Assembly: GCA_965248695.1 (NCBI GenBank)
Contig: CBDFKD010000002.1
Location: 2,944,001 to 3,008,000, forward strand
DNA length: 64,000 nucleotides
Direction of reading: 5' to 3'
From: Acidobacteriota bacterium
Lineage (GTDB): Bacteria > Acidobacteriota > UBA890 > WLXD01
This document shows positions 10,234 to 60,291 of this stretch, piece by piece. The position numbers were made by a program, and so were the translations under genes. A model generated the notes under the pieces. It saw only the letters and a list, made by a program, of their open reading frames with translations. It was not told the DNA's origin and did no database searches. Positions within the stretch are counted from its first letter, which is position 1. Every line of letters begins with the position of its first letter.

Positions 10234-10278
10234 GGAGCGCGGCGATCCCCAAAGCAGCGCGGCGGGCGCGCAGTTCGA

Positions 10279-29777: not shown

Positions 29778-31111
29778 TCCTCGCCAAGAAGGCAATTCCT
29801 CGACGCACGCTGCTGCGCGGGCTCGGCGCCACGGTGGCGCTGCCCTTGCTCGACGCCATGGTCCCGGCTGCGACCGCGCTGGCGCAGACGGCCGCCGGGC
29901 CGATCCGACGCTTCGGGGCGGTCTACGTGCCGAACGGCGTGATCCCGGATCGCTGGTTCCCCTCGACCACCGGTTCGGCGTTCGATTTCTCGTACGCCCT
30001 GAAGCCGCTCGAGCCATATCGCCAACAGCTCAAGATCCTCGGCGGGCTCGACAGCGATCCGGTGCGGCCGCCCGGTGCACCGGGGGCCGTGCACGCCCGC
30101 GCTAGCACCAAGTTCCTGACCAACGTCCACCCCAGCCGCGCGCTCAAGGCCGGCATCTCGATGGATCAGCTTGCCGCCCGTGAGCTCGGACGCACGACGC
30201 AGTTGCCGTCGCTCGAGCTCGCCCTGGACGCCGTTGACGCTGCCGCAACCTGCGACGATGGGAGCTGCATCTACACAGGCACGATCTCGTGGGCCGGGCC
30301 GACGTCCCCGCTGCCCATGGAGACGGATCCGGCGGCGGTCTTCGAGCGACTGTTCGGTGAGGACACCACCGACCCGGCGGCACGCCGCGCCAGCGCGCTG
30401 CGCAAGACCAGCATCCTCGACTCGGTGCTCGGCGAGATCTCCTTGCTCCGCAACCGGGTCGGCCCGAGCGATCAGGCGCGGCTGAGCGGCTATCTCGACA
30501 GCGTCCGGGCGGTGGAACAGCGCATCCAGCGAGCCGTGCAGCAGAACGTCGAGCTGCCGGCGTTCGACCGGCCGGCCGGCGTCCCCGGGGACTATGCCGA
30601 GCACGCGAAGTTAATGTTCGACCTGCAGGTGCTGGCGTATCAGGCCGACATCACCCGCGTCTGCACCTTCATGATGGGTCGGGAATTCAACGGCCGAACC
30701 TATCCCGAGATCGGTGTACCGGATGCGCACCACCCGATCTCGCACCATCGCAACGACCCCGACAAGATGGACAAGTGTGCGCAGATCAACCGCTACCACA
30801 CGAGTCTTTTCACCCATCTGATGGACCGGCTCGCCGAGACACCCGACGGCGACGGATCGCTGCTGGATCAGGTGGTTATCAAGTTCGGCGCCGGCATGAA
30901 CGACGGCAACAGTCATGCGGTCAAGGACCTGCCGATCGTGATCGCCGGCGGCGGCGCGGGTCGTCTCGAGGGCGGGCACTGCCTCCGCTACCCGGAGGGA
31001 ACTCCGCTCGCCAACCTGCACGTTGCGCTCCTCGACAAGCTCGGCGTATCGGTCGAGAGCTTCGGCAACAGCACGGAGCGCCTCGAGCTCGGGTACCTGG
31101 ACGGGGTCTAG
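29774..31111 (+). CDS. DUF1552 (HXXSHH) protein with Tat-like leader
   Basis: RRTLLRGLGATVALPLLDAM, YVPNG, HHPISHH, GSLLD, TPLANL; ATGA overlap with upstream gene. Confidence 0.92.
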   Translation: MILAKKAIPRRTLLRGLGATVALPLLDAMVPAATALAQTAAGPIRRFGAVYVPNGVIPDRWFPSTTGSAFDFSYALKPLEPYRQQLKILGGLDSDPVRPPGAPGAVHARASTKFLTNVHPSRALKAGISMDQLAARELGRTTQLPSLELALDAVDAAATCDDGSCIYTGTISWAGPTSPLPMETDPAAVFERLFGEDTTDPAARRASALRKTSILDSVLGEISLLRNRVGPSDQARLSGYLDSVRAVEQRIQRAVQQNVELPAFDRPAGVPGDYAEHAKLMFDLQVLAYQADITRVCTFMMGREFNGRTYPEIGVPDAHHPISHHRNDPDKMDKCAQINRYHTSLFTHLMDRLAETPDGDGSLLDQVVIKFGAGMNDGNSHAVKDLPIVIAGGGAGRLEGGHCLRYPEGTPLANLHVALLDKLGVSVESFGNSTERLELGYLDGV

Positions 31112-40222: not shown

Positions 40223-42346
40223 TTGAACGGTCGTTGGTCACTGACTCGGGGACTCGGCTGCTCGCTGCTGCTCGCGACCATGGTGCTGTCGCCTGAAGCG
40301 GCGTGGACCATCGGCGCCTCGCAAACGCCCACCGTGGTGGACGACGCGGCGATGGCCAACGAAACGCAGGGCGACAACTGGCTGGCGTTCGGCCGCACCT
40401 ACAGCGAGCAGCGTTTCAGCCCGCTCACCCAGATCAACTCGCTCAACGTCGCCGACCTGTCGGTCGACTGGTACCTGGATCTGCCGACCGACCGCGGGCT
40501 GACCTCCACCCCGCTCGTCGTCGACGGCATTCTGTACTTCATCGGCAGCATGAACGTCGTGCGCGCGGTCGACGGTGCTACCGGCAGGATGCTCTGGGAG
40601 TACGACCCCGACATCGTCGGCAACGCCGCCCACCGCATGCGGTCCGGGTGGGATCACAACCGCGGAATCGCCTTCTGGAAAGGCAAGGTCTACGTCGCTA
40701 CCTGGGACGGTCGACTCAACGCCGTCGACGCCGCCACCGGCGAGGAGCTGTGGAGCGTGATGACGGTCGATCCGTCCGCGCACTACTACATCACGGGGGC
40801 GCCGAAGGTCTTCAAGGGCAAGGTACTGATCGGCAACGGCGGTGCCGATCGCGGCGCCTCGCGCGGCTACGTCACCGCCTACGACGCCGAGACCGGCGAG
40901 CAGGCCTGGCGCTTCTGGATCGTCCCCGGCAACCCAGCCGACGGCTTCGAGAACGACGCCATGCGGATGGCCGCCGAGACCTGGACCGGAGAGTGGTGGA
41001 AGCTCGGGGGCGGCGGCAATTCCTGGCACGGCTTCACCTACGACGCCGAGCTCGATGCGCTGTACATCGGCACCGGTAACGGCGCGCCCTGGAACCAGAA
41101 GCTCCGCAGTCCCGGCGGCGGCGACAACTTGTTCCTGTGCTCGATCGTCGCCCTCGATCCCGACACCGGCGAGTACCTCTGGCATTACCAGACCACGCCG
41201 GGTGAGACCTGGGACTACAACTCCAACATGGACATCGTGCTCGCCGACCTCGAGATCGACGGACGCGAGGTCAAGGCGCTTCTCCACGCCCCCAAGAACG
41301 GCTTCTTTTACGTCATCGATCGGGAAACCGGAAAGCTACTCTCGGCGGAGCCGTACGCCGAAGTGAGCTGGGCCACGGAGATCGATCTGCAGACCGGGCG
41401 CCCGGTCGAGGTTCCCGGCGCCCGCTACGGGGACCGGCCGGCCCGGATCACCCCCTCGTACGCCGGCGCCCACAACTGGCAAGCGATGTCCTACAACCCG
41501 CTCACGGGGTTGACGTACATCCCCGCCATCCACCTGACGATGATGTTCAGCGACGAGGGCATCGATCTCGAGAGCTGGCAGCCCGGCCCGCGTCAGGGCG
41601 CCGGGGTGCGGGCGACCAGCGTCGGATCGCCGCGGTCGGACGGAGCCTCCGGTTCGTTGCTCGCATGGGATCCCGTACGCCAGCAGCTTGCCTGGGAGGT
41701 TCCGCTGACCGGCCTATGGAACGCCGGCACGATGACGAGTGCCGGCAACTTGGTGTTCCAGGGTCGCACCGACGGAGCCTTCGCCGCCCACAGCGCCCAG
41801 ACCGGCGAGACGCTGTGGACCTTCGACATGGGCTCCGGGATCTCGGCGCCCCCGATCACCTACATGATCGACGGGCGCCAGTACGTGGCCCTCCTGGTCG
41901 GCTGGGGTGGCGTGTGGACAGGGATCGGCGGAGCCGAGGCGGCGGCGCCCGGATGGGCGTACGGCGTTCATCCGCGGCGTCTTGTGGCGTTCTCGCTCGA
42001 CGGCGACACTGAGCTGCCGCCCTCGCCGCCACCCATGGTTCCGGTGCCGCTGCATGCCCCCGACTTCGTCGTCGATGAAGCCCTGGCTCAGCAAGGCGCC
42101 AGGGAGTTCGGCGTCGGCTGCGGCGGCTGCCACGGTGGGCTGGTCGCGGGAGGTCAGGCGCCCGACCTGAGGGCGTCGCTCGTGGTGCTGTCAGACGTTG
42201 CGTTCGCGACGGTCGTCCGCGACGGCTCCCGCCTGGCTCGCGGGATGCCGGCCTATCCCGAGCTCACCGAACAGCAGCTCCTGGCGATGCGTCACTTCAT
42301 CCGCGCTGTGGCGGAGCGCGACGCGACAGAATCAAGCGCCCGATAG
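40223..42346 (+). CDS. PQQ-dependent quinohemoprotein dehydrogenase, paralog 2
   Basis: Collinear with 36226-38376; CGGCH haem motif. Confidence 0.92.
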   Translation: MNGRWSLTRGLGCSLLLATMVLSPEAAWTIGASQTPTVVDDAAMANETQGDNWLAFGRTYSEQRFSPLTQINSLNVADLSVDWYLDLPTDRGLTSTPLVVDGILYFIGSMNVVRAVDGATGRMLWEYDPDIVGNAAHRMRSGWDHNRGIAFWKGKVYVATWDGRLNAVDAATGEELWSVMTVDPSAHYYITGAPKVFKGKVLIGNGGADRGASRGYVTAYDAETGEQAWRFWIVPGNPADGFENDAMRMAAETWTGEWWKLGGGGNSWHGFTYDAELDALYIGTGNGAPWNQKLRSPGGGDNLFLCSIVALDPDTGEYLWHYQTTPGETWDYNSNMDIVLADLEIDGREVKALLHAPKNGFFYVIDRETGKLLSAEPYAEVSWATEIDLQTGRPVEVPGARYGDRPARITPSYAGAHNWQAMSYNPLTGLTYIPAIHLTMMFSDEGIDLESWQPGPRQGAGVRATSVGSPRSDGASGSLLAWDPVRQQLAWEVPLTGLWNAGTMTSAGNLVFQGRTDGAFAAHSAQTGETLWTFDMGSGISAPPITYMIDGRQYVALLVGWGGVWTGIGGAEAAAPGWAYGVHPRRLVAFSLDGDTELPPSPPPMVPVPLHAPDFVVDEALAQQGAREFGVGCGGCHGGLVAGGQAPDLRASLVVLSDVAFATVVRDGSRLARGMPAYPELTEQQLLAMRHFIRAVAERDATESSAR

Positions 42347-42853: not shown

Positions 42854-44317
42854 CTAGCGGCCCGACTCTGCGATCCGATAGAGACGGGACGCCGTGCGGA
42901 GAAACAGGCTGCCACGCACCATTGCCGGCGTCGCCATGATCATCTCGTCGAGGCTGTTGACCCCGAGCACCTCGAACTCGGCGCCGGCGCTGATCACGTA
43001 GGTATCGCCATCCTCGCTGGCTGCGAAGATGCGGTCGTTGTAGGCCCAGGGCGAGGCGGTGTAGGCGGTGGCTGCCGAGATCCGCCGCTTGTCGTAGACC
43101 TCGGCACCGGTACGCGCATCGTGGGCCGTCATGAAGCCACGATCGTAGAGAGTGTAGTACTGGTCGCCGTACACCAGCGGCGACGGGTTGTAGGGCGCTC
43201 CCTGCCCCAGCGACCAGGCGACGTGGTCGTTAGAGTTCTCTCCTGCCTGCACCGAGATATCGCCCGCAGCGCCCGGCCGGATCGCGTAGACCGGGCGATG
43301 CTCGTCGCCAACGTAGCCGGACGCGAGGTACAGCAGCCCGAACTCGGTGAACGGGGTTGGAATCGTTATGGAGGACATTCCGGCAAGCTCCCACAGGAGC
43401 TCGCCTTCGAGGTCATAGGAGCGCACCCGGTCGGTGCCCGAAGTGACCACCTCGGTACGCCGCTCGTTCGCCCATATGAACGGCGTCGCCCAGTTGGTCC
43501 CCTCGTCGCGCAGCACGGTCCAGAAGTCCTCGCCGGTGACGGCATCCACTGCGCTCATGAACGACTGATCGTCGTTGTCGTTGACGATGTAAAGGCGTCC
43601 CTCATGCAGCGCCGGAGAAGCCGCCGTGCCCCAGCCGAAGCGCGTCTCGACCATCGGCCAGCGCCGCTCCCACAGCATCTCACCGTCAAGGTCGAGTGCG
43701 AACAGGCCGACGTTGCCGAAGTAGACGTAGATCCGCTTGCCGTCGGTGACCGGGGTCTCGGAGGAATAGCTGTTCTTGAGGTGGCGAGGCATATCGGGAA
43801 CGCCCGCGTGCAACTCCGTTTCCCAGCGCAGCTCACCGGTATCGACATCGTAGGCAAATGCGACCCAGCGGTGAGGGTCCGTCGGGATCGGCCGTTCGCC
43901 GCCGAAATAAAGTCCGGGAGTCGGCTCCTCCCCGGGTACGGTGCTGACCACCGACGTCACCACGACCAGGTCGCCCGTGACGATCGGCGAGCTCCAGCCC
44001 ATCCCCGGAACACTGGACGTCCAGACGACGTTGTCCGTTGCGCTCCAGCTGATCGGCAGCACCGGGTCGGCTGCGATGCCACGCGCGCCAGGCCCGCGAA
44101 ACTGGCGCCATTCCTGAGCCTCGGATACCAGATCTCTCGACGCCTGCGCCGTTGTAGCGGACGCCTCCTGCTGGACTCCGTCGGGGTTTTGCGCCAGAGT
44201 CGCCAGCGGCAGTGCCACGGCGGAGAGGACAACAACCTGCCCTGCCCGCCGGAGGAGAGGAGCCGTGGATCGTGGAAAACGGGCACTCGGGGCGAAGCTG
44301 TCAGGCATTGCAGCCAT
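42854..44317 (-). CDS. PQQ-like/BamB-type beta-propeller secreted protein
   Basis: WRQFRGP, GWSSPI, SETPVTDG, WGTAASP, WATP, YTASP, ATPA...LFLRT; start uncertain. Confidence 0.85.
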   Translation of the reverse strand: MAAMPDSFAPSARFPRSTAPLLRRAGQVVVLSAVALPLATLAQNPDGVQQEASATTAQASRDLVSEAQEWRQFRGPGARGIAADPVLPISWSATDNVVWTSSVPGMGWSSPIVTGDLVVVTSVVSTVPGEEPTPGLYFGGERPIPTDPHRWVAFAYDVDTGELRWETELHAGVPDMPRHLKNSYSSETPVTDGKRIYVYFGNVGLFALDLDGEMLWERRWPMVETRFGWGTAASPALHEGRLYIVNDNDDQSFMSAVDAVTGEDFWTVLRDEGTNWATPFIWANERRTEVVTSGTDRVRSYDLEGELLWELAGMSSITIPTPFTEFGLLYLASGYVGDEHRPVYAIRPGAAGDISVQAGENSNDHVAWSLGQGAPYNPSPLVYGDQYYTLYDRGFMTAHDARTGAEVYDKRRISAATAYTASPWAYNDRIFAASEDGDTYVISAGAEFEVLGVNSLDEMIMATPAMVRGSLFLRTASRLYRIAESGR

Positions 44318-44504
44318 CCTTTCCCTTCTGTCGTGCACCAACTCCGAGAACGCTCCGATGGAGCATCCTATCGGAGAGTGGCAATCTCACGGGGGTGGTC
44401 CCGGAGCCCAACGGTACTCGACACCGACCCAGATCGACAAAGACGTTCAAACCGGCGCCGTCCCGCGGGCGGCGCCCCGAGGAGAGGAAAATGGTCGCGA
44501 CTAG
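44265..44504 (+). pseudogene. N-terminal remnant of a PQQ glucose-dehydrogenase-like gene
   Basis: GEWQSHGGGPGAQRYSTPTQIDKDV (about 44373-44447) parallels GEWHYYGGDKGFTRYSPLDQINSENV of the 17340-19322 protein, then similarity stops. Confidence 0.5.
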
Positions 44505-45417: not shown

Positions 45418-45831
45418 TCAGGACAACGCCACATGCGGACGCACACTATCGACCGTCGTCCGCGCGGCCGTCCTCGCGCGCTCGGCGTCGGCACGATCGT
45501 AGAAGCCCGTCGGTGTCAGGTCTTCGGCACCGTAGAAGGCGATCTCACGGTCACGGCGCAGGTCCTTGGAGATCGCGGTGAGCTCGTCGAGCCGATCCCG
45601 GACCGGCTGTGGCAATCGATCCTGCTCGGCGATCAGCACGCCGGAAACGTCGTGGATCCGTGGCGGCACCACGCCGTGGGCCCGCAGCAAGCCCTTCAAA
45701 GCGAGCTCGACGATCTCCTGCGACTCGCGCACCACGTCCGCCCAGCTGCCTGCTTCGAACAGGACGTCGAGGGCGCGCAGCCGCACATCGGCGCGCCAGA
45801 CGTGGTCCTGTGCCAGGTTCCGGTCATGCAT
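45418..45831 (-). CDS. HEPN domain protein
   Basis: SQEIVELALKGLL, PRIHDV, LRRDREIAFYG; 3 nt downstream of the MNT gene. Confidence 0.85.
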   Translation of the reverse strand: MHDRNLAQDHVWRADVRLRALDVLFEAGSWADVVRESQEIVELALKGLLRAHGVVPPRIHDVSGVLIAEQDRLPQPVRDRLDELTAISKDLRRDREIAFYGAEDLTPTGFYDRADAERARTAARTTVDSVRPHVALS

Positions 45832-45834
45832 CCA

Positions 45835-46380
45835 TCAGGCCGCCTCCATCCAATAGGGATGGCCGTCGATGAGGCGACGGATGATACGGCCTGCGGCGAT
45901 GTCGGCGCGCACACGTGCCAGGCGCCGCGACACGGCGACCTCGCGCTCGAACAAGACCAGCCCGTCAATCGCCGCCTCTGCCCAGATGCCGGCGACGACA
46001 TTGTCGGCGGGAGGCAGGCTGACGAAATGCGGCTCCACTGGCCGACCGTCCCAGGAAACGGGTTCAGCGTCCCAGCGACGATACAGCTCTCGGGTCACCT
46101 GCGCTCCTTCATCGACCACGACGAGCAAATCCACGTCTGAGTCGGCGTGCATCTGGGCGCGGGCCCACGAACCGAAGCCGATCACGCCGGCCAGAGCCTC
46201 GCCGGCGACGCTCGCGGCGCGCGTGACGGCTGCCAGCGCACCGGCATCTGCCATCGACCCGGAGGGCGAGGCGAGCTTGCGTGCGCAGTACTCGTTCAAC
46301 GACAGCCCGGCACCGTCGGCCGCCCGTCGAAGCGCTGTGTGGAGCGCGGGTTCGATGCGCAGGAGGAATCGACCCGACAT
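45835..46380 (-). CDS. HicB-like RHH domain fused to a minimal nucleotidyltransferase (MNT)
   Basis: SGRFLLRIEPALH...A...GLSLNEYC (RHH), followed by FGSWAR....DSDVDLLVV (Pol-beta NTase motif). Confidence 0.85.
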   Translation of the reverse strand: MSGRFLLRIEPALHTALRRAADGAGLSLNEYCARKLASPSGSMADAGALAAVTRAASVAGEALAGVIGFGSWARAQMHADSDVDLLVVVDEGAQVTRELYRRWDAEPVSWDGRPVEPHFVSLPPADNVVAGIWAEAAIDGLVLFEREVAVSRRLARVRADIAAGRIIRRLIDGHPYWMEAA

Positions 46381-46382
46381 GG

Positions 46383-46436
46383 TGATATCATTCATCAACA
46401 GTTAATGATATCAGTTCGACATCTATACTGATATCA
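46383..46436. promoter_or_regulatory. Three TGATATCA palindromes at 23-bp period, probable operator of the RHH-MNT/HEPN operon
   Basis: TGATATCA at 46383, 46406 and 46429 in an AT-rich patch directly upstream of the ATG. Confidence 0.75.
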
Positions 46437-47853: not shown

Positions 47854-49470
47854 CTAGACCGTAAGGCCGTCGGCCGCGTCCTCAGTACCGGACCCGGGGC
47901 CGGCCTTCCGGTCATCGGGAGCAGTAAGCGCCTTCTCGTCGGACCGCAGCGATCTGGTCAGCGAAACAGCCATCGCTACCCCGGCGAACAGGATCGGGAA
48001 CGACGCCAGCAGCGAGGCCAACCGGATGATCTGCAGTCCGCCGACGAACAGCATGAACAGCGGCAACGCGCCCAGTATCAGCGCCCAGAACAGCCGATGC
48101 GAACGACCCGGGTTGTCGTCGGCGTGGAGCTCTCGAGTCACCGTCGCGGCGATCGTGTAGGAGGCCGAGTCGTAGCTCGTGGCGGCAGACACGACGCTCA
48201 CCACCAGCAGGATCCCCAGCGCCACGACGCTCACCGGCAGCGTCGCGATGATCTTGGCCGTCGCCACGCTCATGCCGGCGTCGGCGAGAACGTTGCTCAC
48301 CGGCAGAAGGTTCTCGAGCTCCAGGTACAGCGCGTAGTTTCCGAGGACGAAGAAGGATACCCAGCAGCCGCCACTGCCCAGACAGGTCATCCCCACAATC
48401 ACCTGACGAAGCGTGCGCCCACGAGAGATCCGGGTCACGAAAGTACCTACCACCGGGGCGAAGGCGATCCACCAAGCCCAATAGAAGACTGTCCAGGACT
48501 CGACGAAGCCGGTGTTCTGGATCGGGTCGGTCCAGGTCAGCATGCGAACGAAATTCGTTGTCATCATGCCGAGTGTCTCGGTGGTCAGCTCGAGAATGAA
48601 CAGCGTCGGCCCGACCACGACGATGTAGGCGAGGAGCAGCCCGAAAAGCACCACGTTGAGATCACTCAGACGCTTGATGCCGGCCTCCAGGCCGAGATAC
48701 ACGCTAACGCCGAACAGCACGACGCAAACGCCGATCGCGAGTGCCTCCAACGCGAACGACGTGCCAATACCGAGCAGCTCGGCGGTGCTCGCCGCGACCA
48801 ACGGCGCGATGAACCCGAGCGAGGTGCCGGCACCACCGAGAATTCCGAGTACGGCGGTGAGGTTCACCAGACGGCCGAAAAAGCTTCGATGCCCGTTCGC
48901 ACCAAGCAATCCGTGGCAGGCGGTACTGGCGCACAGGTGGGGCACCCGGTTGACGTAGAACGGGTAGGCGATCGCCACGGTCGGCAAGGCGTAGATACAC
49001 CACGCGACGATCCCCCAATGGAACGGACCATAGGCCGTCGCCCAGCTGATCGCCTCGGCCGACTGCGGCTCGGCCCCGAACGGTGGATTGTTGTAGTAGG
49101 CGACCCACTCCACCGCCCCCCACGACACCAGCGCCGCTCCGGTGCCGGCACAGAACAACATGCCGCCCCAAGAGAACGTCGAGAAATCGGGCTCCTGCTC
49201 CTCGGCGCCGAGGCGCACCGAGCCGAAGCGTCCGAACGCGATCCACGCCAGGAAGACGATGACCCCGACAGCGAACCACTGGTAGAGAAAACCGAAGTGG
49301 CTCGTCAGTCGGTCGTACAGGTCGGAAACGAAGTCACCTGCGCGCTCGGGCGCAAGCCCCAGAGGGACACAGATGGTGCCGACGACGACTAGCACGACGG
49401 AGAGCATCAGCCAGTCGATCTGCGGCGCCAACGCGCCCCGATCGACCGTCTCCCCGGCCGGCTGATTCAA
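47854..49470 (-). CDS. BCCT family (betaine/carnitine/choline) transporter
   Basis: PDFSTFSWGGMLFCAG, FHWG..AW.IY, GIKRLS, WTVFYWAWWIAFAP..G.F.TRISRGRT; TTG start overlaps the upstream TGA. Confidence 0.92.
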   Translation of the reverse strand: MNQPAGETVDRGALAPQIDWLMLSVVLVVVGTICVPLGLAPERAGDFVSDLYDRLTSHFGFLYQWFAVGVIVFLAWIAFGRFGSVRLGAEEQEPDFSTFSWGGMLFCAGTGAALVSWGAVEWVAYYNNPPFGAEPQSAEAISWATAYGPFHWGIVAWCIYALPTVAIAYPFYVNRVPHLCASTACHGLLGANGHRSFFGRLVNLTAVLGILGGAGTSLGFIAPLVAASTAELLGIGTSFALEALAIGVCVVLFGVSVYLGLEAGIKRLSDLNVVLFGLLLAYIVVVGPTLFILELTTETLGMMTTNFVRMLTWTDPIQNTGFVESWTVFYWAWWIAFAPVVGTFVTRISRGRTLRQVIVGMTCLGSGGCWVSFFVLGNYALYLELENLLPVSNVLADAGMSVATAKIIATLPVSVVALGILLVVSVVSAATSYDSASYTIAATVTRELHADDNPGRSHRLFWALILGALPLFMLFVGGLQIIRLASLLASFPILFAGVAMAVSLTRSLRSDEKALTAPDDRKAGPGSGTEDAADGLTV

Positions 49471-50381
49471 GCGAACGCGGCCTTCAACGCCTGGATGTGG
49501 GGCACGCCGAGGCCGCAGCATCCGCCGATGATCTGGGCACCAGCGTCTACCCAGACACGAGTCTCGCGCACCAGATCCTCCGGATCGATGATGTCCACGA
49601 ACTGCCAGTTGGGCATCGTGAAGTACCCCGACTCCGGGTAGGCCCCGATCGGACCCGACCAGTGCTCCTTCACCGTGGCGAGTCCCGGTCCGGTGTCGGC
49701 GATGGCGCTATGCATGACGTTGACCACCCCGATGCCCGATCCAGCCAGCTCGCTTACCAGCTGCCCGACGTCCACCTCCGATCTGTCGAAGCCGACGACG
49801 TTGCCGGTGTCGGCATCGACCATACAGCTCACACCGAGCCACACCGGCAGGCCGGTGGCCACCGCCGCCTCGACCTGCATCGGCGAGTACTCCGGGTGGT
49901 AGCACATCTCCAGCGCGATCAGCTCCGCACCCGCCCCGGCGAGCACGTCGGCCTGGCGGCGAAAGCCGTCAGCGAGTTGCTCGGGCCCGGGAGCGGAGTC
50001 CGGATTTACCCAGGGGCACATCGATCCGGCGATCGCCAAGGGCCCCTGCGCTGCCTGCTCGCGCGCCTGCAGCGCCACCTCGACCCCGCGGACGTTGATG
50101 CTCTCCATCTGGTCGCCGAGCCCCGCGAGGTTCAGCGCTTCCTGGCCAGAGGCGAAGGTGTTGGTAATGATCACCTCTGCCCCGGCCTCGATGTAGTCGA
50201 CGTGGGCGTCACGCACCATCTCGGGGTGCGTCTGCAGCGCCACGCCACTCCAGTTCTTGTCGTTCATCGGCACGCCGCGAGCCTCGAGCTCGGTGCCCAT
50301 GGCGCCGTCGATCAGCACCAGGCCGCCGCCAGCGATCTTGTCGTGTAGCCAATCCGGTCCGCATCGTCCGGGAGGTGCCAT
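49467..50381 (-). CDS. Homocysteine S-methyltransferase family protein
   Basis: IDGAMGTEL, H.DYIEAGAEVIITNTF, IAGS, GAYP, IIGGCCGLG..HI. Confidence 0.88.
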   Translation of the reverse strand: MAPPGRCGPDWLHDKIAGGGLVLIDGAMGTELEARGVPMNDKNWSGVALQTHPEMVRDAHVDYIEAGAEVIITNTFASGQEALNLAGLGDQMESINVRGVEVALQAREQAAQGPLAIAGSMCPWVNPDSAPGPEQLADGFRRQADVLAGAGAELIALEMCYHPEYSPMQVEAAVATGLPVWLGVSCMVDADTGNVVGFDRSEVDVGQLVSELAGSGIGVVNVMHSAIADTGPGLATVKEHWSGPIGAYPESGYFTMPNWQFVDIIDPEDLVRETRVWVDAGAQIIGGCCGLGVPHIQALKAAFA

Positions 50382-50535
50382 GCCGATGATCTCCTTCGTT
50401 TGCTTTTCGCCAGCGAGAACGGCGGGGCCAGCGTGCGGAACGGGCTTCAGCGCATGGGTCAGATCCGACACGGGCGCCGCTGGTGCGCACGGAGTCTACA
50501 CCCGCGCGCGAGCATAGGGACCAGGCACGGCCTTC

Positions 50536-51840: not shown

Positions 51841-53067
51841 ATGAAGAGCACCTGGCGACGAAGTACCACGATAGCCCTTGGCGCCCTCGCAGGGCTGGCT
51901 GCCTGCTCCAATCAGGAGACCGGGGTGCCGGAGCAGACGAACCCGTCGCCGCAGACCCCCGCGGTGCAGGCGGCGCACGACGCAGTCAGCAACCCCGACG
52001 ATACGTACGTCGACGAGCTCGGGATGGAGTTCGGGATACCCATCAACCATCCTGCCATCGTCCACCCGGGCTCCGACGACTTTCCCAGCGGTCCGGCGGT
52101 GGGCGAGCGACTCCCCGACTTCACGCTGCCGAACCAGCACGGGGAAATGATCGATTTCCAGCAACACCACGCGGGCCAGAAGGCGGTTGTTGTCTTCTAT
52201 CGATCCGCCGTCTGGTGACCCTACTGCATGACGCAGCTGGTCGAGCTGCAGAAGAAGATCGGCGAGTTCGAAGCTGCTGGCATCCGCGTGTACGGCGTCA
52301 GCTACGACCCGCAGTCGGAGCTCGAGGCCTTCTCGGACCGCTACGGGATCACCTATGACCTGCTTTCGGACGTCGATTCGGCGGTTATCCGGCGGTTCGG
52401 GATTCTCAACACACTCGTCGACCCGGACGACCCTCGCGCCAGCGACCTGTATGGGATTCCGTTTCCGGGCACCTATGTAGCCGACGCATCCGGCGTCGTC
52501 ACCGAGAAGTTCTTCAACCGCCACTACGCGACCCGCGACTCGGCTGGGACGATCCTCGACAAGGCGCTCGGCGAGGTCCTGCTTCACGAGGAGGCACCGC
52601 AAACTGATCAGCAAGATGAGCGCGTCCGCATCACCGCCTTCCTCTCGGATACGGATCTGAAACTCGAGGTCACCAACACGCTCTACGTCCGTCTCGAGCT
52701 GGCGGCGAACCACCACGTCTACGCCGAGCCCCTTCCCCAGGGTTTCTACCCGACCACGGTCGACGTGCAACCGGCCCGTGGCCTCAGGGTCGGCGACGCG
52801 ATCTACCCGCCAACCAGACCGAGAGAGTTCGAGATCCTCGGCGTGACGCTCAACGTCTACGAGGATGCCGCCGAGATCGCTGTTCCAATCACCGCGACGA
52901 CACTGCTGTGGGACGATTCGGAAACCCTCGAGGCCGATAGCACCCTGCCGCTCGAGCTGGATATCGTGGTCGACTACCAGGTCTGCAGTGAGACCATCTG
53001 CTACCGGCCGGAGACGGCGCGACTGCAGATCGAGGTACCGATCGCGGCATTGGAAGAGCCGCAGTGA
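51841..53067 (+). CDS. Selenoprotein: lipoprotein AhpC/TSA-type redoxin (UxxC) fused to a DsbD-N-like domain, 408 aa
   Basis: Track ORFs 51841-52218 and 52228-53067 are in the same frame, joined by TGG TGA CCC TAC TGC = W-U-P-Y-C. The redoxin fold (VGERLPDFTLPNQHG...VVVFYRS...VYGVSYD...LLSD...PGTYV) spans the TGA. Lipobox LAAC; C-terminal YQVCSETICY. Confidence 0.88.
52233..52249 (+). promoter_or_regulatory. Putative bacterial SECIS
   Basis: GCAGCU-GGUCG-AGCUGC: perfect 6-bp stem, loop starts with G, 20 nt between UGA and loop. Confidence 0.65.
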
Positions 53068-53352: not shown

Positions 53353-55530
53353 GTGAGTGGGCGCGGCCCTCGGATCGTCATGGCGTGCGGTCTTCTGGCG
53401 ACCTTCGCGACCGGCACTGCGGCAGTGCCGGCCTTGCAGAACCCTCAACAGGTGTTCGACCGCGCGGTCGAGGACTTCCGCGCCGGACGGCTACACGATG
53501 CCGCGACGGCGTTCGACCGCCTGGTCGAGCTCGCCCCGGGCTCCGCTGCGCATCTGTGGCAGCGCGGCATCGCTCTCTACTACGTCGGTCGCTACCAGGA
53601 CTGCCGTGAGCAGTTCGAAGCACACCGCACAGTCAATCCGAACGACGTCGAGAACGCTGCCTGGCACTTCCTGTGCGTTGCCCGCGCCGAGTCTCCGGCG
53701 GCGGCGGGCGCCGCGCTGTTGCCGGTGGGGCCGGACGCGCGCGCACCGATGGCGGAGATCTATCGCATGTTCCGCGGCGAGCTGGCGGCCGATGAGCTAT
53801 TGACCGCGGCCGGCGCCGGGGTATCGGCGCAGTTCTACGCCCACCTCTACCTTGGCCTCTATCACGAGGCTTGGGGACGCGACGAGGCCGCGCTACGACA
53901 CATCCAAACCGCCGCCGACAATCGATACGCCGACGTAGGTGGGTACATGCACATGGTGGCACGGGTGCACTTGGGCGCTCAGCGAACTGACTACGGCGAC
54001 CTCCTGGATCTCTTCGAGGGTTGGCGAGCGTTCGAGAGACCGACCTTCACCGACGGCGTGCCGGACTACTCCCGCGCTGCGATGGCAACACAGGCAGACG
54101 CGCTGCCGGCCTACCGCGCCCGGCTCGAGGCGATCGAGATCGACTCATGGCCGATCGCCCAGCAGATCGACTGGCACCTGGTGCGCGCCGAGATGAACGG
54201 GCTCGACTTCGATCATCGCGTACGGCGACCGTGGGCCAACAATCCTGCCTTCTACGTGATGCTGTTCCCGGCCGAGTCGGACGTGCCTGCCCACGAGGGC
54301 CCGGTCATCCACGGCTGGATCGATACCTGGACGTACGACTACCCGCTATCGCCCGCCGACGCCGCCGCGCTGACCGAGCGCGTGGCGGCGATCCCGCCGC
54401 TGCTGGAGCAGGCGCGCGGCAATCTGGTGGGCGATGGACACGATCTGTGGCGCATGAGCGTGGGCTCGATACGTGGCCAGAGTGCCAACCTCGCCAGCTT
54501 CGGGGAACGAGTAGCCGGCACGAGCGCCGCACTCGACCGCGCGGTCCAGGAGGCCATCGTCGCCAGCGATCGCTTCGCTGGGTGGCTCGAGCTTCAGTTA
54601 CCTTCCAAGACCGGGGTGTCGGGCGTCGGAAAAGACAACTACAGCTGGTATCTGCAGAACGTCCACCTTGTTCCCTACACCTGGGAGCAGCAGCTCACGC
54701 TGATGCGCCGCGAGCTCTGGCGCGCCCATGCGTCGCTTCGGCTCGAAGAGAACCGCAACCGCCACCTGCCGCGGCTGAGCCGCTACCAGTCTGCCGTCGA
54801 GTACGACGAGGCGCTCAACACCGCGGTCACCGAGTACATGGAGTTTCTCGCGGAAGAAGAGATCCTGACGATCCGTGACTACATGGACGAGGCGCTGCGC
54901 GAGCGGATTGGTCGTTTTGCGCCCCCCTCGCGCGCCGACGGACTGCGCGGCTTTTTCGCCGAGGTCGACTACCGAGACGGCGAGGTCATGCGCACCCACG
55001 GGTATCACTGGTTCGACCTCGCCCGCATGCGACTCGAGCCGCACGAGAGCCCGATTCGGCGCGTTCCTGCCCTGTTCAACATCTATGACGCGCGCTCCGA
55101 GGGCATGGCCACCGGCATCGAGGAGATGATGATGCACGCCGGCGCCTTCGACGATAAGCCGCGCGCCCGTGAGCTGATCTGGATCTTGCTGGCACAACGC
55201 GCTGCACGCGCTATCGGCGGTCTCATGCAGCACGGTCGGGAATGGTCGCTACAGGAGGCCGCCGAGTTCGCCTCCGAGTGGGTGCCGCGCGGCTGGCTAC
55301 CGTCCGACGGGGCGACGATCCAGTTCGAGGAGCACTTCTACCTTACGCAGCCCGGCTACGGCACGAGCTATGTCATGGGCAAGATCGAGATCGAGCAGCT
55401 TCTTGCCGAGCGCGCCATCCAGCTTGGCGACGAGTTCAGCCTCAAGCGATTCATGGACGAGTTTTCCGCCGTCGGAGTGATCCCGGTATCCATGGTTCGC
55501 TGGGAGCTCACCGGTCGCAGCGAAGAGTAG
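53353..55530 (+). CDS. TPR (NlpI-like) domain fused to a DUF885-like domain, secreted
   Basis: N-terminal LWQRGIALYY...NPNDVENAAWHFLC...FYAHLYLGLY...YMHMVARVH. C-terminal RSEGMAT..EE, Y..QPGYGTSYVMGK..IE.L, LGDEFSLK.F.DEF. Confidence 0.7.
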   Translation: MSGRGPRIVMACGLLATFATGTAAVPALQNPQQVFDRAVEDFRAGRLHDAATAFDRLVELAPGSAAHLWQRGIALYYVGRYQDCREQFEAHRTVNPNDVENAAWHFLCVARAESPAAAGAALLPVGPDARAPMAEIYRMFRGELAADELLTAAGAGVSAQFYAHLYLGLYHEAWGRDEAALRHIQTAADNRYADVGGYMHMVARVHLGAQRTDYGDLLDLFEGWRAFERPTFTDGVPDYSRAAMATQADALPAYRARLEAIEIDSWPIAQQIDWHLVRAEMNGLDFDHRVRRPWANNPAFYVMLFPAESDVPAHEGPVIHGWIDTWTYDYPLSPADAAALTERVAAIPPLLEQARGNLVGDGHDLWRMSVGSIRGQSANLASFGERVAGTSAALDRAVQEAIVASDRFAGWLELQLPSKTGVSGVGKDNYSWYLQNVHLVPYTWEQQLTLMRRELWRAHASLRLEENRNRHLPRLSRYQSAVEYDEALNTAVTEYMEFLAEEEILTIRDYMDEALRERIGRFAPPSRADGLRGFFAEVDYRDGEVMRTHGYHWFDLARMRLEPHESPIRRVPALFNIYDARSEGMATGIEEMMMHAGAFDDKPRARELIWILLAQRAARAIGGLMQHGREWSLQEAAEFASEWVPRGWLPSDGATIQFEEHFYLTQPGYGTSYVMGKIEIEQLLAERAIQLGDEFSLKRFMDEFSAVGVIPVSMVRWELTGRSEE

Positions 55531-55543
55531 GACGAGGGCTGAG

Positions 55544-57160
55544 ATGCTCGATGTCGGCGACGCGTACCCTCCCTTCGAGCTACAGCGTGCCGATGGGGAG
55601 GCGTGGAGCTCCACCCCGGAAACCGTGGCCGGCCCGGTGCTGCTCGCGATCCTGGAGACCGACTGTCCGACGTGTCGGCTGATCGTCCCTTACCTATCGC
55701 GCCTCGACGAAGCGCTGTCTCCGACCCCCGGGCGAGTAGTGGCGGTGTCGCAGGACTCTTCGGCCGACACCGACGCAATGCTCAGCAGTCTCCGCTTCAG
55801 CCCGCCGGCGCTGATCGATGACCAGCTCGACGTCTCTCGAACTTTCGACCCCCCGAGCGTGCCGGCGCTGTTCGTTCTGGGAACCGATGGACGCCTCGAA
55901 TTCGCTTCCATTGGCTTCGATAAGGGCGACCTGAACCAGATCGCCGCCCGCATGATGGAGGCCTACGGGCTGGCAGTCCGGTGCATCGCCGAACCCGACG
56001 ATGGGGCACCGGAGAGCAAGCCCGGCTGTGCATCGCGGCACGTGGAGCCCCCCGACGATGCCGCGATGCCACGCGCGGCGCCGATCGACCTGCACCCGCA
56101 GGAGGGAACACGGGCGACCAGGCTGACACTCGACGAGGATATCGACCTCTACGAGTACTGCATGGACGCCGGGTTCTCGCCGTGCCTGCCGGTGGTCCCT
56201 CCCACTGCGGCGCGCGTCGATCGCACCCTCGCGGCGACCCCCTTGCCCGCCGACCGGGTGATCGGCCTGGTACCTCCGTGCTACGGCGAGGCTACCGTCG
56301 AGAAGATCGCCGCCAACGCCGTGATGGCCGGCTGCAAGCCCGAGTACATGGAACTGCTGGTGCCGCTGATACGAGCCGCTTGCGACGAGCGCTTCAACCT
56401 CCATGGCGTGCAGGCCACTACCCACTCCGCCACACCGTTGGCGATCGTCAGTGGCCCGGCCGTCGATCGCCTCGGACTGACCTGCGGCGCCGGGCTGTTC
56501 GGAAACACGGCGCGCGCCAACAGCACCATCGGTAGGGCGTTCCAGCTCGTGATCACGAATCTCGGCGGCGCGCTACCGGGCGAGATCGACATGTCGACGT
56601 TGGGGAATCCCGGCAAGTTCTCCTATTGCATCGCCGAGAACCGTGCGGCGAGCCCCTGGGAGCCGCTGCATGTCGAGGACGGATTCGGTGCTAACGACAG
56701 CACGGTCACGCTGTTCGGGGCGGCCGGCATCCAGGAGGTCAGCGACCATACCGCTCGTTCCGGCGCGCAGCTCTTGCGAACGATCGCCGCGACGCTCGCC
56801 GTGGTCTGGAGCTGGCGTGTCTGTGGGCGCGTCGACGCGTTGCTGGTGATGTCGCCGGAGCATGCGGCGACAATGGCGGCGGATGGATTCACCAAGACCG
56901 ACATACGCGATTTCCTGTTCGACAACACCGGTGTGCCGTTGCGGGCGTTCGATCACGACGGCACCGAGGGGTCTCAACTTCGCGACAGGTACGATGAGAT
57001 CCGCATCGATGGGGAGCCGCACTATCGCAAGTTCAGCGACCCGAGCCAGATTCGCATTGTCGTCGCCGGCGGCACAGCAGGTAAATTCTCCGCGGTGATC
57101 GGCGGTTGGCCATCCGGTCCCGGCGGTACCCAGATCGTCACCTACCCGGTCGCGTGGTGA
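55544..57160 (+). CDS. CxxC redoxin domain fused to the uncharacterised PVVPPT domain (partner of the UGSC selenoprotein)
   Basis: N-terminal thioredoxin fold DCPTC, SQD, SVPALF, KPGC. C-terminal LPVVPPT..RV, ATVEKIAANAVMAGCKPEY, QATT, RANSTIGRA, TLGNPGK, AEN..SPWEPLH, IVVAGG. Confidence 0.8.
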   Translation: MLDVGDAYPPFELQRADGEAWSSTPETVAGPVLLAILETDCPTCRLIVPYLSRLDEALSPTPGRVVAVSQDSSADTDAMLSSLRFSPPALIDDQLDVSRTFDPPSVPALFVLGTDGRLEFASIGFDKGDLNQIAARMMEAYGLAVRCIAEPDDGAPESKPGCASRHVEPPDDAAMPRAAPIDLHPQEGTRATRLTLDEDIDLYEYCMDAGFSPCLPVVPPTAARVDRTLAATPLPADRVIGLVPPCYGEATVEKIAANAVMAGCKPEYMELLVPLIRAACDERFNLHGVQATTHSATPLAIVSGPAVDRLGLTCGAGLFGNTARANSTIGRAFQLVITNLGGALPGEIDMSTLGNPGKFSYCIAENRAASPWEPLHVEDGFGANDSTVTLFGAAGIQEVSDHTARSGAQLLRTIAATLAVVWSWRVCGRVDALLVMSPEHAATMAADGFTKTDIRDFLFDNTGVPLRAFDHDGTEGSQLRDRYDEIRIDGEPHYRKFSDPSQIRIVVAGGTAGKFSAVIGGWPSGPGGTQIVTYPVAW

Positions 57161-57194
57161 AAGCAACCGCCGGCCACTTCACAGGAGCCCGGTC

Positions 57195-57734
57195 ATGCCA
57201 GAGATCTTGGTAAACCCGCTCGACGAAGCCGCCCAGGCACCACAGCCGGCGGCCCCTCGGCTCGACGAGCTCGAAGGCAAGACGATCGGACTGCTCGACA
57301 TCAGCAAACCCGGCGGCAGCGTGCTGCTGGACAGGTTGGAGGAGCTGTTGCGCGAGCACCATGGGGTAACAAGCTTCGTGCGGGAGGTGAAGCCGACGTA
57401 CACGAAGCCCGCCCCCGACAGTGTGCTGCAGCGGCTCGGTCTCGCCGACGGCGTCATCGAGGCGCTGGCCGACTGAGGATCGTGCACAACGTGCAGTTTG
57501 CACGACTCCGTCAGCCTCGAGAATCGCGGCATTCCCACCGTTCCGATCGCCACCGACGAGTTCCGCACTGCCGCACGAATCCAGGCGAACCGACTCGGGC
57601 GTCCGGATCTCGATGCAGTCTACGTTTCGCATCCCATCCAGGATCAGACCGAGGCCGAGATCCAGGCGCGGGCGGAAGCAGCCATCGGACAGATCGTCGA
57701 CCGACTCACCACCGCCGCCGGCAACGAGACCTGA
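57195..57734 (+). CDS. UGSC-motif selenoprotein, 179 aa
   Basis: Track ORFs 57195-57476 and 57498-57734 are in the same frame: GAC TGA GGA TCG TGC ACA ACG TGC = D-U-G-S-C-T-T-C, then HD...LENRGIPTV...HP. N-terminal APRLDELEGKTIGLLDISK. Confidence 0.9.
57490..57504 (+). promoter_or_regulatory. Putative bacterial SECIS
   Basis: CGUGCA-GUU-UGCACG: perfect 6-bp stem, loop starts with G, 19 nt between UGA and loop. Confidence 0.62.
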
Positions 57735-58712
57735 TCACAGTCCGAGCAGACGACCGGCGTTGCCCCCCAGGATCGCGGCACGCTCGGCGTCCGAGATCTG
57801 TAGCGCGTCGATCGACGTTCGCATCTTCTCCAAACTGCCGATCATGTGCGGGTAGTCGCTGCCGGCAACGAGCTGGCCGGCTCCCGCGAAGTCGATCGTC
57901 AGCTGCAGGCAGGCCGGATCGAAGTTGACCGTGTCGTAGTAGAAGTCCTTCAGAACTTCACTCGGCCGCCGGCTCAGATGCTCGCGACAGCGACGGAAGG
58001 CCTCGTAGCCGCGGTCGAGTCGCTCGGCGAGGAACGGAATCGCGCCGCCGTTGTGGCACAGCACCCAGCGAATCCCCGGAAACTGTTCCGGCACGCCGGC
58101 GAAGACCAGGTGAGCCGCCGCCAGCGTCGTGTCGAAGAGGAATCCGACCAGCGGCATGAGCATGAACTCCTCCATCGCCTCCACCCCGAGCGGATACGTC
58201 GGGTGGATGTAGATGATCGCTCCGGCGCTGCTGGCACGCTCATAAAGGGGCCAGAACCGCTCGTCGGCCAGAGCAACGCCACCGGCGTTGCTGTACAGCA
58301 TCACGCCAGGAAAGCCGTGCTCGTCGAGTACCCGGTCGAGCTCCAGCGCCGCGGCGGCCGGGTTGTTGAGCGGCAGGTGCCCGAGTGCAGTGAATCGATC
58401 CGGATGGGCGGCCACGGCGGCGGCCAGCCCGTCGTTCACCACCATCGCCAGGTCGGCGGCACGCTGCGGCGACTCGATGCTGGTACCCGGAGCGGTGAAG
58501 CTGATGACCTGGCGGTCCACACCGCTCTCGTCGATCACGCCACAACGAAAATCGATGTCGCGATGACCCGGAACCAGGACGTTGTAGTCGCCGGGCGAGT
58601 GCAAGACCGGGTTGCCGTGGTCGTCGCTGCTGACGCGGAACGCACTGGGTCCCGCCGTGACCGCAGCGACGTAGTCCGGAGGAAAGTAGTGGTTGTGGAA
58701 ATCGATGATCAT
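57735..58712 (-). CDS. Amidohydrolase_2 family (ACMSD-like decarboxylase/hydratase)
   Basis: IDFHNH, VND, IYIHP, CHNGGAIPF...R, FYYDT, GSDYPH, ILGGNA. Confidence 0.9.
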   Translation of the reverse strand: MIIDFHNHYFPPDYVAAVTAGPSAFRVSSDDHGNPVLHSPGDYNVLVPGHRDIDFRCGVIDESGVDRQVISFTAPGTSIESPQRAADLAMVVNDGLAAAVAAHPDRFTALGHLPLNNPAAAALELDRVLDEHGFPGVMLYSNAGGVALADERFWPLYERASSAGAIIYIHPTYPLGVEAMEEFMLMPLVGFLFDTTLAAAHLVFAGVPEQFPGIRWVLCHNGGAIPFLAERLDRGYEAFRRCREHLSRRPSEVLKDFYYDTVNFDPACLQLTIDFAGAGQLVAGSDYPHMIGSLEKMRTSIDALQISDAERAAILGGNAGRLLGL

Positions 58713-60082
58713 GCGGAGCTCACTGACGGGGACCTGGCAGTCCACCACATGTACACCGGCAGGCCGGCACCGACCATCCCAAGGCCTGAGAGGCTCCCAG
58801 CGGGATCACTGATGATGTGGTTGACGACAACGGCGAACGCGGCGAGGGCGAACAGGAATGGCGTCACGGGATAGCCGACGATGCGGTATTCGGGCGTCCG
58901 CTTGGCCGACCTTCGCAGCTTGATCAATCCCAGCGCCAGAACGCCAAAGAACACCCATTCGGTGTAGATAACGCGCGTGAACAGCGCTCGATAGGTTCCG
59001 CTGAGCACCAGCACCGATGCCCAGAACGCCTGCAACACTACCGCGCGATGCGGCGTCCGATAGCGTGGGTGCACCTCCCCCACCCAGGCGAACAGCAGGC
59101 CGTCGCGCGCCATCGCGTAGTAGACCCTGGGTCCGGACAGAACGATTCCGGCGAGGGCACCGAAGGTCGAAAACAACACCAGTGCGATCATCGCCGTGCT
59201 GCCACCGGTGCCCAGCACCGTGTCGGCGGCGTCAGCCGCGATGCGCTGAGAATGGATCACCGTATCGATGGGCAGGAGGTAGAAGTACACCCCGTTGAGT
59301 GCGATGTAGCACGCCGTAACGATCGTCACGCCCCAGATGAGGGCCCGTGGGATGGTGCGGTGCGGCTCGATCGTCTCCTCGGCGTTGTAGCTCACCATAT
59401 GCCAGCCGCCGAAGGCGAACAGAGCTGCCGACACCGCGAGCACGAAGTCCGACAGGCCGCCGCCGCCGAGGAACGCGAACCCGGGTAGAGCCACCAGGCC
59501 CGATCCATCAGCGACTGCAACGTCAGACACAGCCTCCTCCGAGGCCGGCTGCCCGAGCGCCAGGCCGAGGACGACGATGAGCACGATTGCGGCCACCTTC
59601 ACCACGGTGAACGCCGCCTGGAGGTTGCTACCGTGCTCCACACCGCGGTAGTTGACCGCCGACAGCAGCAGAATCGTCGCCACAGCCACCAGTCGCGTCG
59701 ACGTGTCACCGAGCGGGACCAGGAAGGCAGCGTAGGATGCGAACACCATCGCCACCGCAGCGATGATTCCCGAGTGCATCACCCAGAACATTGCCCAACC
59801 CCACAGGAAGCCGAGCCAGCCGCCGAATTGCGCGCGTAGATATACATAGACGCCACCGCTGGCCGGCATCGAAGAGGCCAACTCGGCGACCACCAGCGCC
59901 CCGAGCATGGTCAACACGCCGGCCGTCAGCCACACCAGCGCGGCGCCGGTCATCGAGGGTACCCGTCCGGTGACCTCGGACGGCTGAACGAAGATGGAGG
60001 CGCCGATGATCGTGCCGACAACCATCGCCGTCGCGTGACGCGGGCCGATGGCGCGACGCAGCTCTGTCCCGCCGGGGGTCAA
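58709..60082 (-). CDS. APC family amino acid permease
   Basis: GTIIGASIF, AELASSMP.SGG.YVY, FAFGGW, EE...P.RTIPRA, PRVYYAMARDG, TP..A; ATGA overlap with the amidohydrolase; start approximate. Confidence 0.9.
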   Translation of the reverse strand: MTPGGTELRRAIGPRHATAMVVGTIIGASIFVQPSEVTGRVPSMTGAALVWLTAGVLTMLGALVVAELASSMPASGGVYVYLRAQFGGWLGFLWGWAMFWVMHSGIIAAVAMVFASYAAFLVPLGDTSTRLVAVATILLLSAVNYRGVEHGSNLQAAFTVVKVAAIVLIVVLGLALGQPASEEAVSDVAVADGSGLVALPGFAFLGGGGLSDFVLAVSAALFAFGGWHMVSYNAEETIEPHRTIPRALIWGVTIVTACYIALNGVYFYLLPIDTVIHSQRIAADAADTVLGTGGSTAMIALVLFSTFGALAGIVLSGPRVYYAMARDGLLFAWVGEVHPRYRTPHRAVVLQAFWASVLVLSGTYRALFTRVIYTEWVFFGVLALGLIKLRRSAKRTPEYRIVGYPVTPFLFALAAFAVVVNHIISDPAGSLSGLGMVGAGLPVYMWWTARSPSVSSA

Positions 60083-60291
60083 GCGTGCTCTCGCAGCGTG
60101 CTCATATCCGCACTCTGTCAGGAAGTGCGCTCGGCTGAAAGCCGCAGGGGGCGAGCACAACCTACCTTGGAGGAAGTACTGTCCGTTCGAGTCGGTTAGT
60201 TTGACCGGATCTCGAACGAGATCGCCGGACCAGCCATCGACGCTGCCTGACGGAACCACGCTTACAACAATTCTCTGGAGCAACGCGCCTC

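Follow-up and report, generated by a model that had tools for sequence, protein, structure and literature searches.

The window analysed here, a 64,000-nucleotide stretch of DNA from an Acidobacteriota bacterium, carries a gene with an in-frame TGA codon in front of a G-S-C sequence, and the question raised by this locus is what chemistry a selenocysteine (Sec) in such a protein would serve. The family to which the protein belongs is not new: the accessible text of PMC2398784 (2008) already describes it, including its Sec, as 'UGSC-containing protein' and guesses a thioredoxin-like fold, and Fig. S1A of that paper shows a domain called 'Unknown_1' fused to UGSC, with a conserved Cys. In the accessible parts of later sources UGSC is merely listed or counted (PMC1976440, PMC9312934, PMC5029168, PMC7539508, PMC9402790), the updated ocean survey PMC9402790 assigning it 8.2% of 4324 selenoprotein genes, and as available to us the 2026 listing in PMC13188914 still gives it as uncharacterised. 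A first-pass annotation of the window proposed that the protein is a stand-alone catalytic domain of the GrdB/PrdB type, the Sec subunits of glycine/betaine and proline reductase, that it may break a C-N or C-S bond in concert with the upstream protein, and that neighbouring genes hint at amine or betaine substrates. No statement tying UGSC to GrdB/PrdB was found in the literature searched, with subscription journals, InterPro/Pfam entry text, bioRxiv and other supplements outside the search. What was known before thus comprises the family with its Sec and the fusion to Unknown_1; what is new is the homology to the Grd/Prd proteins, together with a defined partner and electron relay and the refutation of the local substrate hint.

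A selenoprotein gene of the UGSC family

The gene and its associated features are listed in Table 1. The TGA is the only internal in-frame TGA of the ORF, and with this codon read as Sec the protein has the form ALAD-U-GSCTTCSLHDSVSLENRGIPTV...ANRLG...SHP, as the first-pass annotation described it. Pfam model PF24696 covers residues 5-172 of the read-through protein (E 3e-49; 167.7 bits against a cut-off of 25, model positions 2-171 of 172), and NF041046 matches over its entire length (149.7 bits against a cut-off of 125, model positions 1-147 of 147). Since both matches span the read-through, the two halves of the ORF belong to one protein, and at the level of sequence the gene is confirmed as a genuine selenoprotein gene of the UGSC family (NF041046/PF24696). 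PF24696 is the sole Pfam model matching at E <= 0.01; no thioredoxin-like Pfam model matches. Promoter and terminator scans gave results at chance level, and a tRNA search of the 64-kb window found none. On the minus strand, an amidohydrolase gene (57735-58748) runs convergently up to the stop codon of UGSC.

Table 1. Positions of the UGSC gene, its partner and their sequence features in the window.
Feature	Position	Strand	Remarks
Partner gene, 538 aa	55544..57160	+	ends 34 nt before UGSC start; thioredoxin-like domain, Cys linker and 'Unknown_1'
TlpA/AhpC-TSA-like domain, C41-P-T-C44	55553..55924	+	proposed electron entry point
Linker motif KPGC162AS	56018..56035	+	proposed shuttle cysteine
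'Unknown_1' domain, ~350 aa	56111..57157	+	no Pfam/NCBIfam family; proposed substrate-binding subunit
Ribosome-binding site AGGAG	57183..57187	+	7 nt 5' of UGSC ATG; from sequence
UGSC-family selenoprotein gene	57195..57734	+	ATG 57195, stop TGA 57734; 179 aa with in-frame TGA as Sec
U94-G-S-C97-T-T-C100 motif	57474..57494	+	TGA 57474-57476; C97 codon 57483-57485; C100 codon 57492-57494
SECIS upper stem-loop	57490..57504	+	stem +14..+19 with +23..+28 after UGA; loop GUU 57496-57498, 19 nt from UGA

Decoding of the UGA codon

The hairpin in Table 1 was assessed in 61 TGA-bearing UGSC genes (the window copy, 58 from GTDB and two from plasmids) and seven Cys-coded ones, assembled by a pattern search that overlooked a few TGA-bearing genes. 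All 61 keep the five stem pairs from +14:+28 to +18:+24 as well as a G at loop position +20, the +18:+24 pair being C-G in 40 and G-C in 21. Pairing is found in 93% of the alignment cells, and the 25 double changes seen were reached by none of 500 shuffles, in a control that ignores relatedness and tests a structure derived from the same sequences. The U+7 codon is AGT in 59/61 and GGT in 2/61, against a background of 38 AGT among 413 Ser codons of the in-frame flanks; in the seven Cys-coded genes it is never AGT, and +18 pairs with +24 in three of them. Comparison with synonymous resampling gave a mean z of -1.43 for 49 TGA genes and +0.10 for the seven Cys genes. The window hairpin also fits the bacterial SECIS consensus given in the accessible part of PMC13188914 (GUU loop, 19 nt from the UGA, 6-bp stem); the energy of its 21-nt piece, -7.4 against the -7.5 of the model, is borderline, and that of 57 nt is -23.3. 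Comparative support is therefore strong for a UGA that would be decoded as Sec through a SECIS element. Because the stem restricts U+6 to Cys or Trp (59 of the 61 genes), the third Cys common to GrdB and the window protein is partly a by-product of the hairpin. An earlier hairpin from single-sequence folding, which paired back to the UGA, was discarded for the covarying one.

Conservation within the family

Residues were counted in 124 homologs of at least 150 aa, taken from the 150 listed of 1336 matches in a representative search (E <= 0.001). The TGA column holds Cys in 118 of the 124, a set biased against Sec forms, and so it is not the non-Cys column that the first-pass annotation had named as evidence against its proposal. 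The flanking positions are similarly well kept (G95 in 122, C97 in 116 and D93 in 113). Position U+5, Thr99 in the window copy, is S in 80, A in 25 and T in 12. At position 100 (U+6) Trp is commonest (56), ahead of Cys (20), Ala (12) and Ser (9), so that the Cys completing UxxCxxC, present here as UGSCTTC, is not a family-wide feature. In the tree of 56 chosen rows described below, the window protein falls with Acidobacteriota (100/97), and at least five interchanges between Sec and Cys forms are seen. Divergent motifs occur in fused UGSC-partner proteins from plasmids: those of Sporomusa and Vibrio (L007 7275-8999 and L008 7386-9071; locus numbers are ours) read ALGDMGTS or ALADMGTS, without Cys, and that of Neorhizobium (L009, ~6400-7950) reads GHCSTC.

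Homology to the B subunits of glycine and proline reductases

The GrdB of Acetoanaerobium noterae contains LTST-U350-GTCTRCGATMVKEIERAGIPVV...GANRI...PHP, in agreement with the motif given by the first-pass annotation. When 102 UGSC members were scanned singly against NCBIfam, the GrdB model TIGR01917 was matched by 51 (best E 2.9e-10), GrdF by 29, TIGR01918 by 28, GrdH by 17 and PrdB by 15 (best E 1.7e-4), with unrelated families matched by at most three members each. The matches to the GrdB model, mapped in detail for 26 members picked partly for having them, are C-terminal, at positions ~304-426 of 431. A tblastn search with homolog P0164 gave a weak unannotated match (E 3) that is GrdB by translation and sits in a complete operon trxB-trxA-grdE-grdA-grdB-grdC-grdD. 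This complete glycine reductase operon is present in the almost unannotated 2.6-Mb record NZ_CP154629.1 (L095), which is labelled as a plasmid.

Profile comparison with hhalign against eight retrieved B subunits (GrdB/GrdF/GrdH/PrdB) aligned UGSC residues 36-152 over 110 columns with a probability of 96% (E 4e-9), U94 falling on U350; the four PrdB sequences alone gave 84% (E 8e-6). In the controls the reversed profile reached 6.5% and column-shuffled profiles at most 0.8% (30 trials), and masking of the Cys motif left 80% (E 1.4e-5). The first 35 UGSC residues are unaligned in this local alignment, the N-terminal part of GrdB (200 aa) gave 0.3%, and seven other Grd/Prd subunit profiles stayed below 10%. 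In a search of 1367 ORFs with a UGSC HMM, nine B-type ORFs ranked above all other non-UGSC ORFs, six at E < 0.001 and the last three without significance (E 0.25-0.58). The profile similarity on which the first-pass annotation had staked its proposal is thus present, and UGSC is almost certainly homologous to the Sec domain of GrdB/PrdB, as judged from these alignments.

The same sequence comparisons place UGSC in a family of its own, the window protein being a member of neither GrdB nor PrdB. Its scores are far below the curated cut-offs (GrdB 13.5 against 602 bits; GrdF 16.5 against 800 bits), the PrdB model TIGR04483 gives no match to it at E <= 1, and in a tree of 56 chosen rows, midpoint-rooted without outgroup, nine B rows split from 47 UGSC rows (100/100). 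All eight retrieved Grd/Prd B subunits have Arg at U+5, the position of Thr99.

UGSC resembles PrdB (TIGR04483) and stand-alone PrdB-like selenoproteins in being a small single-domain Sec subunit with U-G-[ST]-C followed by E-x-x-G-[IV]-P-T, a larger partner and no acetyl-phosphate branch. It is smaller (~180 against 240 aa), has D at U-1 and carries D104 instead of the U+5 Arg of PrdB; furthermore, its partner has no similarity to the pyruvoyl protein PrdA, no PrdH/PrdC is encoded nearby, and the putative electron donor domain is of the thioredoxin type. With GrdB, GrdF and GrdH, UGSC shares the C-terminal Sec domain and, in the window copy, UxxCxxC, and both systems are associated with trxA/trxB. 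Unlike these proteins of ~435 aa, UGSC shows no match to their N-terminal domain and has no GrdE/A/C/D near it. Most plausibly the window protein would work like PrdB, although it is no member of either family. A further parallel, likened by description only, is the fluoroacetate operon of Synergistota; according to the accessible part of PMC10838667, it combines a gene for a radical SAM enzyme with two others that are related to the GrdB complex, Grd-B-type proteins there being proposed to act on C-X bonds outside amino acids. One of the retrieved loci (L024) has a stand-alone PrdB-like selenoprotein gene (9702-10550, minus strand, APA-U-PICHQ) two genes from its UGSC gene; the product scores 132 bits with TIGR04483 against a cut-off of 300, and the locus has no PrdA.

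The predicted model of the UGSC protein (pLDDT 94.7) has an alpha/beta/alpha architecture of five alternating strand-helix units, with the UxxC between strand 3 and the next helix. Fold searches returned tied, generic flavodoxin/Rossmann/receiver-like matches, the best with Z 11.0 and rmsd 4.3 over 137 aligned residues, and among the PDB matches listed there was neither a thioredoxin fold nor a GrdB/PrdB chain; our searches turned up no solved structure of Grd/Prd B subunits. PDB sequence searches with the protein and both profiles found nothing significant for UGSC or Unknown_1, the putidaredoxin and FtsZ rows being weak. In the ESM Atlas, a Cys homolog of UGSC had no usable named match besides PF24696.

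The partner protein

Unknown_1 is widespread, with at least 7438 relatives. The UGSC plasmid records have the partner within ~0.5 kb in 14 of 14 cases, and in the opposite direction 23 of 24 partner records have a UGSC-type match adjacent or fused, none being annotated in Haladaptatus. A GTDB locus scan was queried with the partner, which biases the sample to relatives of the window; among the best 80 of at least 589 matches, UGSC lies within 250 nt in 64 and within 1.1 kb in two, four loci are cut by contig ends and ten have no UGSC in the retrieved flanks. All 17 listed UGSC matches of at least 300 aa are fusions. The upstream protein thus is a partner as the first-pass annotation suggested, and adjacency and fusion imply that UGSC may pair physically with Unknown_1. 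Of the earlier label, the homology of the Sec domain stands, but 'stand-alone' is misleading for a protein nearly always beside or fused to its partner.

Of 101 fused homologs of the partner, 99 retain CPTC and 96 retain the linker motif K/R-x-G-C-x-S. In Unknown_1, C264 occurs in 87 of 88 rows, and T293, N326, R331, N339, E365 and H440 are invariant in all 88. Among the same best 80 of at least 589 GTDB loci, the CPTC domain is fused to the partner in 35, a TrxB-like gene is near the pair in two (and in 7 of 14 plasmid loci), and neither appears in the retrieved flanks of 43. An Arthrobacter plasmid (L004) has the order trxB-trxA-partner-UGSC. Thiol recycling is thus the steady association of the module, whereas other neighbours vary. 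We consider a partner with a thiol relay probable.

The partner was ruled out as a homolog of GrdE/PrdA, with probabilities below 1% against the profiles of GrdE/PrdA, GrdA, GrdC, GrdD, PrdC, PrdD and PrdE. Its predicted model (pLDDT 94.1) has no clear match among PDB folds (best Z 5.0-5.1, rmsd 2.9-4.1, ~90 aligned), which need not mean a new fold. The best Foldseek rows belong to class I fumarate hydratases (E 3e-3, TM-score ~0.26), and ESM Atlas clusters of the partner are unnamed or automatically named only.

Two or three partner paralogs are found in L002, L012, L013, L071, L076 and L093, in some cases flanking one UGSC gene and in other loci alongside several UGSC genes, which suggests heteromeric or substrate-diversified versions. 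The Poribacteria loci L039, L042, L059 and L060 have a shorter partner (~315 aa) and no UGSC in the retrieved flanks.

Genomic context and possible substrates

All neighbours to which the first-pass annotation pointed are present, but the genes for the BCCT transporter (47854-49521), the methyltransferase (49467-50471) and the APC permease (58709-60283) lie on the minus strand, opposite to UGSC. Relatives of these three occur in none of the 94 related loci and of the OCD-like gene in one, and the amine or betaine hint is thereby refuted; betaine specifically is a highly improbable substrate. GrdE, GrdA, GrdC, GrdD, PrdA, PrdH and PrdC were each found in 0 of the 94 loci, and the window ORFs scanned gave no such Pfam match; genes in the loci were called crudely, with Pfam run on 246 flanking ORFs and a few others of the 1007 called.

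No substrate-specific neighbour conserved across the loci was found. Among 15 plasmid loci viewed, one of which (L009) is unannotated, six have CoA-transferases and eight have TRAP/TTT transporter genes, a loose pointer to organic-acid catabolism. In the best 80 of at least 589 GTDB loci, TctC genes are near the pair in ten and CoA-transferase III in eight, and both were treated as weak. Betaproteobacteria carry many TctC genes, and the TctC linkage is weak since nearly all TctC loci belong to this group. DUF6282 genes adjoin the pair or lie within a few genes of it in L001, L013, L043, L071, L093 and L103; occurring in loci of haloarchaea, Chloroflexota and Acidobacteriota, DUF6282 is a possible substrate clue. 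Phosphosulfolactate synthase-like genes are found near the pair in L004 and L001, the former having the order ABC transporter, CocE/NonD hydrolase, phosphosulfolactate synthase-like gene, trxB, trxA, partner, UGSC. Aconitase X is encoded within three genes of the fused UGSC-partner gene on two plasmids (L007 and L008).

Other features of the window

A second candidate selenoprotein gene (51841-53067) lies on the UGSC strand two genes upstream of the partner; an in-frame TGA (52216-52218) joins two ORFs to a peroxiredoxin/TlpA-like protein of 408 aa with W-U126-P-Y-C and a C-terminal DsbD_N-like domain, and a homolog is near the pair in L024. The gene for a TPR + DUF885 protein (53353-55530, plus strand) ends 13 nt before the partner gene, with which it is probably co-transcribed; its relatives occur in 0 of 94 loci. 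Elsewhere, a HicB/nucleotidyltransferase gene and a HEPN gene (45418-46398, minus strand) resemble an MNT-HEPN toxin-antitoxin pair, four genes encode PQQ-type beta-propellers (17340-19355, 36226-38376, 40223-42346 and 42854-44341), and a DUF1592/DUF1552 pair is located at 27234-31111.

Proposed mechanism and alternatives

We propose, at about even odds, that UGSC and Unknown_1 form a two-subunit, thioredoxin-recycled reductase with a Sec nucleophile of the Grd/Prd type. UGSC, with its UGA read via the SECIS, would be the selenolate-bearing subunit, and Unknown_1 would stand in for GrdE/PrdA, assisting in substrate binding and polarisation. Sec94, the counterpart of U350 of GrdB, sits where the helix after strand 3 begins; by homology, it would attack a small-molecule substrate and expel a heteroatom group, the carbon under attack probably belonging to a small organic acid. 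In keeping with the scheme put forward for proline reductase, Cys97 would then resolve this adduct, forming a selenenyl-sulfide and releasing the reduced product without an acetyl-phosphate branch. Electrons may return through the fused CPTC domain, linker Cys162 and Cys264 of the partner, or through free Trx/TrxB in other lineages; in such a scheme this relay would replace PrdC or GrdA and Unknown_1 would replace PrdA.

The model for these steps is proline reductase, in which, as far as the accessible text of PMC11229817 goes, the Sec of PrdB attacks the alpha-carbon of the PrdA-bound substrate and the U151C variant is inactive; cleavage of the Se-C bond by a thiolate then yields the selenenyl-sulfide, in a mechanism that the review PMC10298544, in its accessible part, terms hypothetical. 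Attack of Sec94 on carbon with C-X cleavage, including the C-N or C-S cleavage of the first-pass annotation, is argued by analogy and has slightly less than an even chance. The missing U+5 Arg counts against it, as do the common Cys forms given the inactivity of PrdB U151C. The carbonyl activation of the Grd/Prd systems moreover has no visible counterpart, as the partner lacks similarity to GrdE/PrdA and none of their genes was found in the 94 loci. Further points against the proposed reductase are the 43 GTDB loci showing neither a fused CPTC domain nor TrxB in the retrieved flanks, the ten partner loci showing no UGSC there, the 35 unaligned N-terminal residues and the lack of a conserved substrate-specific neighbour.

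For these reasons (no U+5 Arg, no carbonyl-cofactor subunit, common Cys forms) the main rival keeps the same two-subunit thiol relay and lets Sec attack a heteroatom (S=O, N-O, O-O or a low-molecular-weight disulfide), in a chemistry like that of methionine-sulfoxide reductases or peroxidases, with the Grd/Prd fold serving as a plain UxxC redox centre. UxxC alone is conserved family-wide, and the module is tied to TlpA/Trx/TrxB and found in Paracoccus, Variovorax, Arthrobacter and haloarchaea, which are largely aerobic. However, the many invariant polar residues of a dedicated 350-aa partner point to specific small-molecule chemistry, all relatives detected are C-X-cleaving subunits, and the plasmid loci are often set among catabolic and transport genes, so that we regard heteroatom attack as rather unlikely, though a serious competitor. 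Much less probable is a metal or Fe-S centre bound at the interface by U94/C97 of UGSC and C264 of the partner for a hydratase- or lyase-type reaction, the thioredoxin parts keeping the ligands reduced. The fumarate hydratase rows, aconitase X near the fused gene on two plasmids and the three conserved Cys/Sec positions over the pair agree with such a centre, but the fumarate hydratase match is a weak one that ties with unrelated folds (Z 4.5, rmsd 5.1 over 184 residues), the fused CPTC and linker Cys better suit a catalytic redox cycle, and the accessible parts of PMC11229817 and PMC10298544 do not present the Grd/Prd B proteins as cluster proteins.

A role as sulfur or selenium carrier, in which residue 94 holds a persulfide or perselenide used or made by the partner, would fit the Paracoccus ferrooxidans pair near genes for cysteine desulfurase, TusA, DsrE, selA and selB, the selA/selB genes directly upstream in L088, and the phosphosulfolactate synthase-like genes on two plasmids. 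Such contexts are sporadic, sel genes are expected neighbours because selenoprotein genes often cluster with them, and the conservation of Cys97 as resolving residue speaks for redox cycling; we give this role an even smaller chance than the metal centre. Least probable of all is a reductase for betaine, sarcosine or proline that would receive its substrate through the nearby BCCT or APC transporter. BCCT genes do flank genuine grdF and grdH, and the window adds to its BCCT and methyltransferase genes a pyrroline-2-carboxylate reductase-like gene, but apart from the strand and locus counts given above, no GrdE/I/G, GrdA, GrdC or GrdD homolog was found in the 94 loci.

Implications

The placement of UGSC with GrdB/PrdB lets the guess of a thioredoxin-like protein give way to testable chemistry, since the reading of a Sec-nucleophile reductase names a nucleophile, a resolving Cys, a partner and an electron donor. 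Natural Cys-coded UGSC pairs ease expression, and a soluble relative of 180 aa offers a handle on the Grd/Prd B subunits. Tentatively, and with appreciably less than an even chance, UGSC and Unknown_1 may constitute a widespread third branch of Grd/Prd-type selenium chemistry far outside the Stickland fermenters, one that would reductively cleave C-N, C-S or C-halogen bonds without a pyruvoyl subunit through a relay from CPTC via the linker Cys and Cys264 to Sec, with a partner fold that is possibly undescribed. If true, this would give a catabolic function to one of the most abundant marine selenoproteins.
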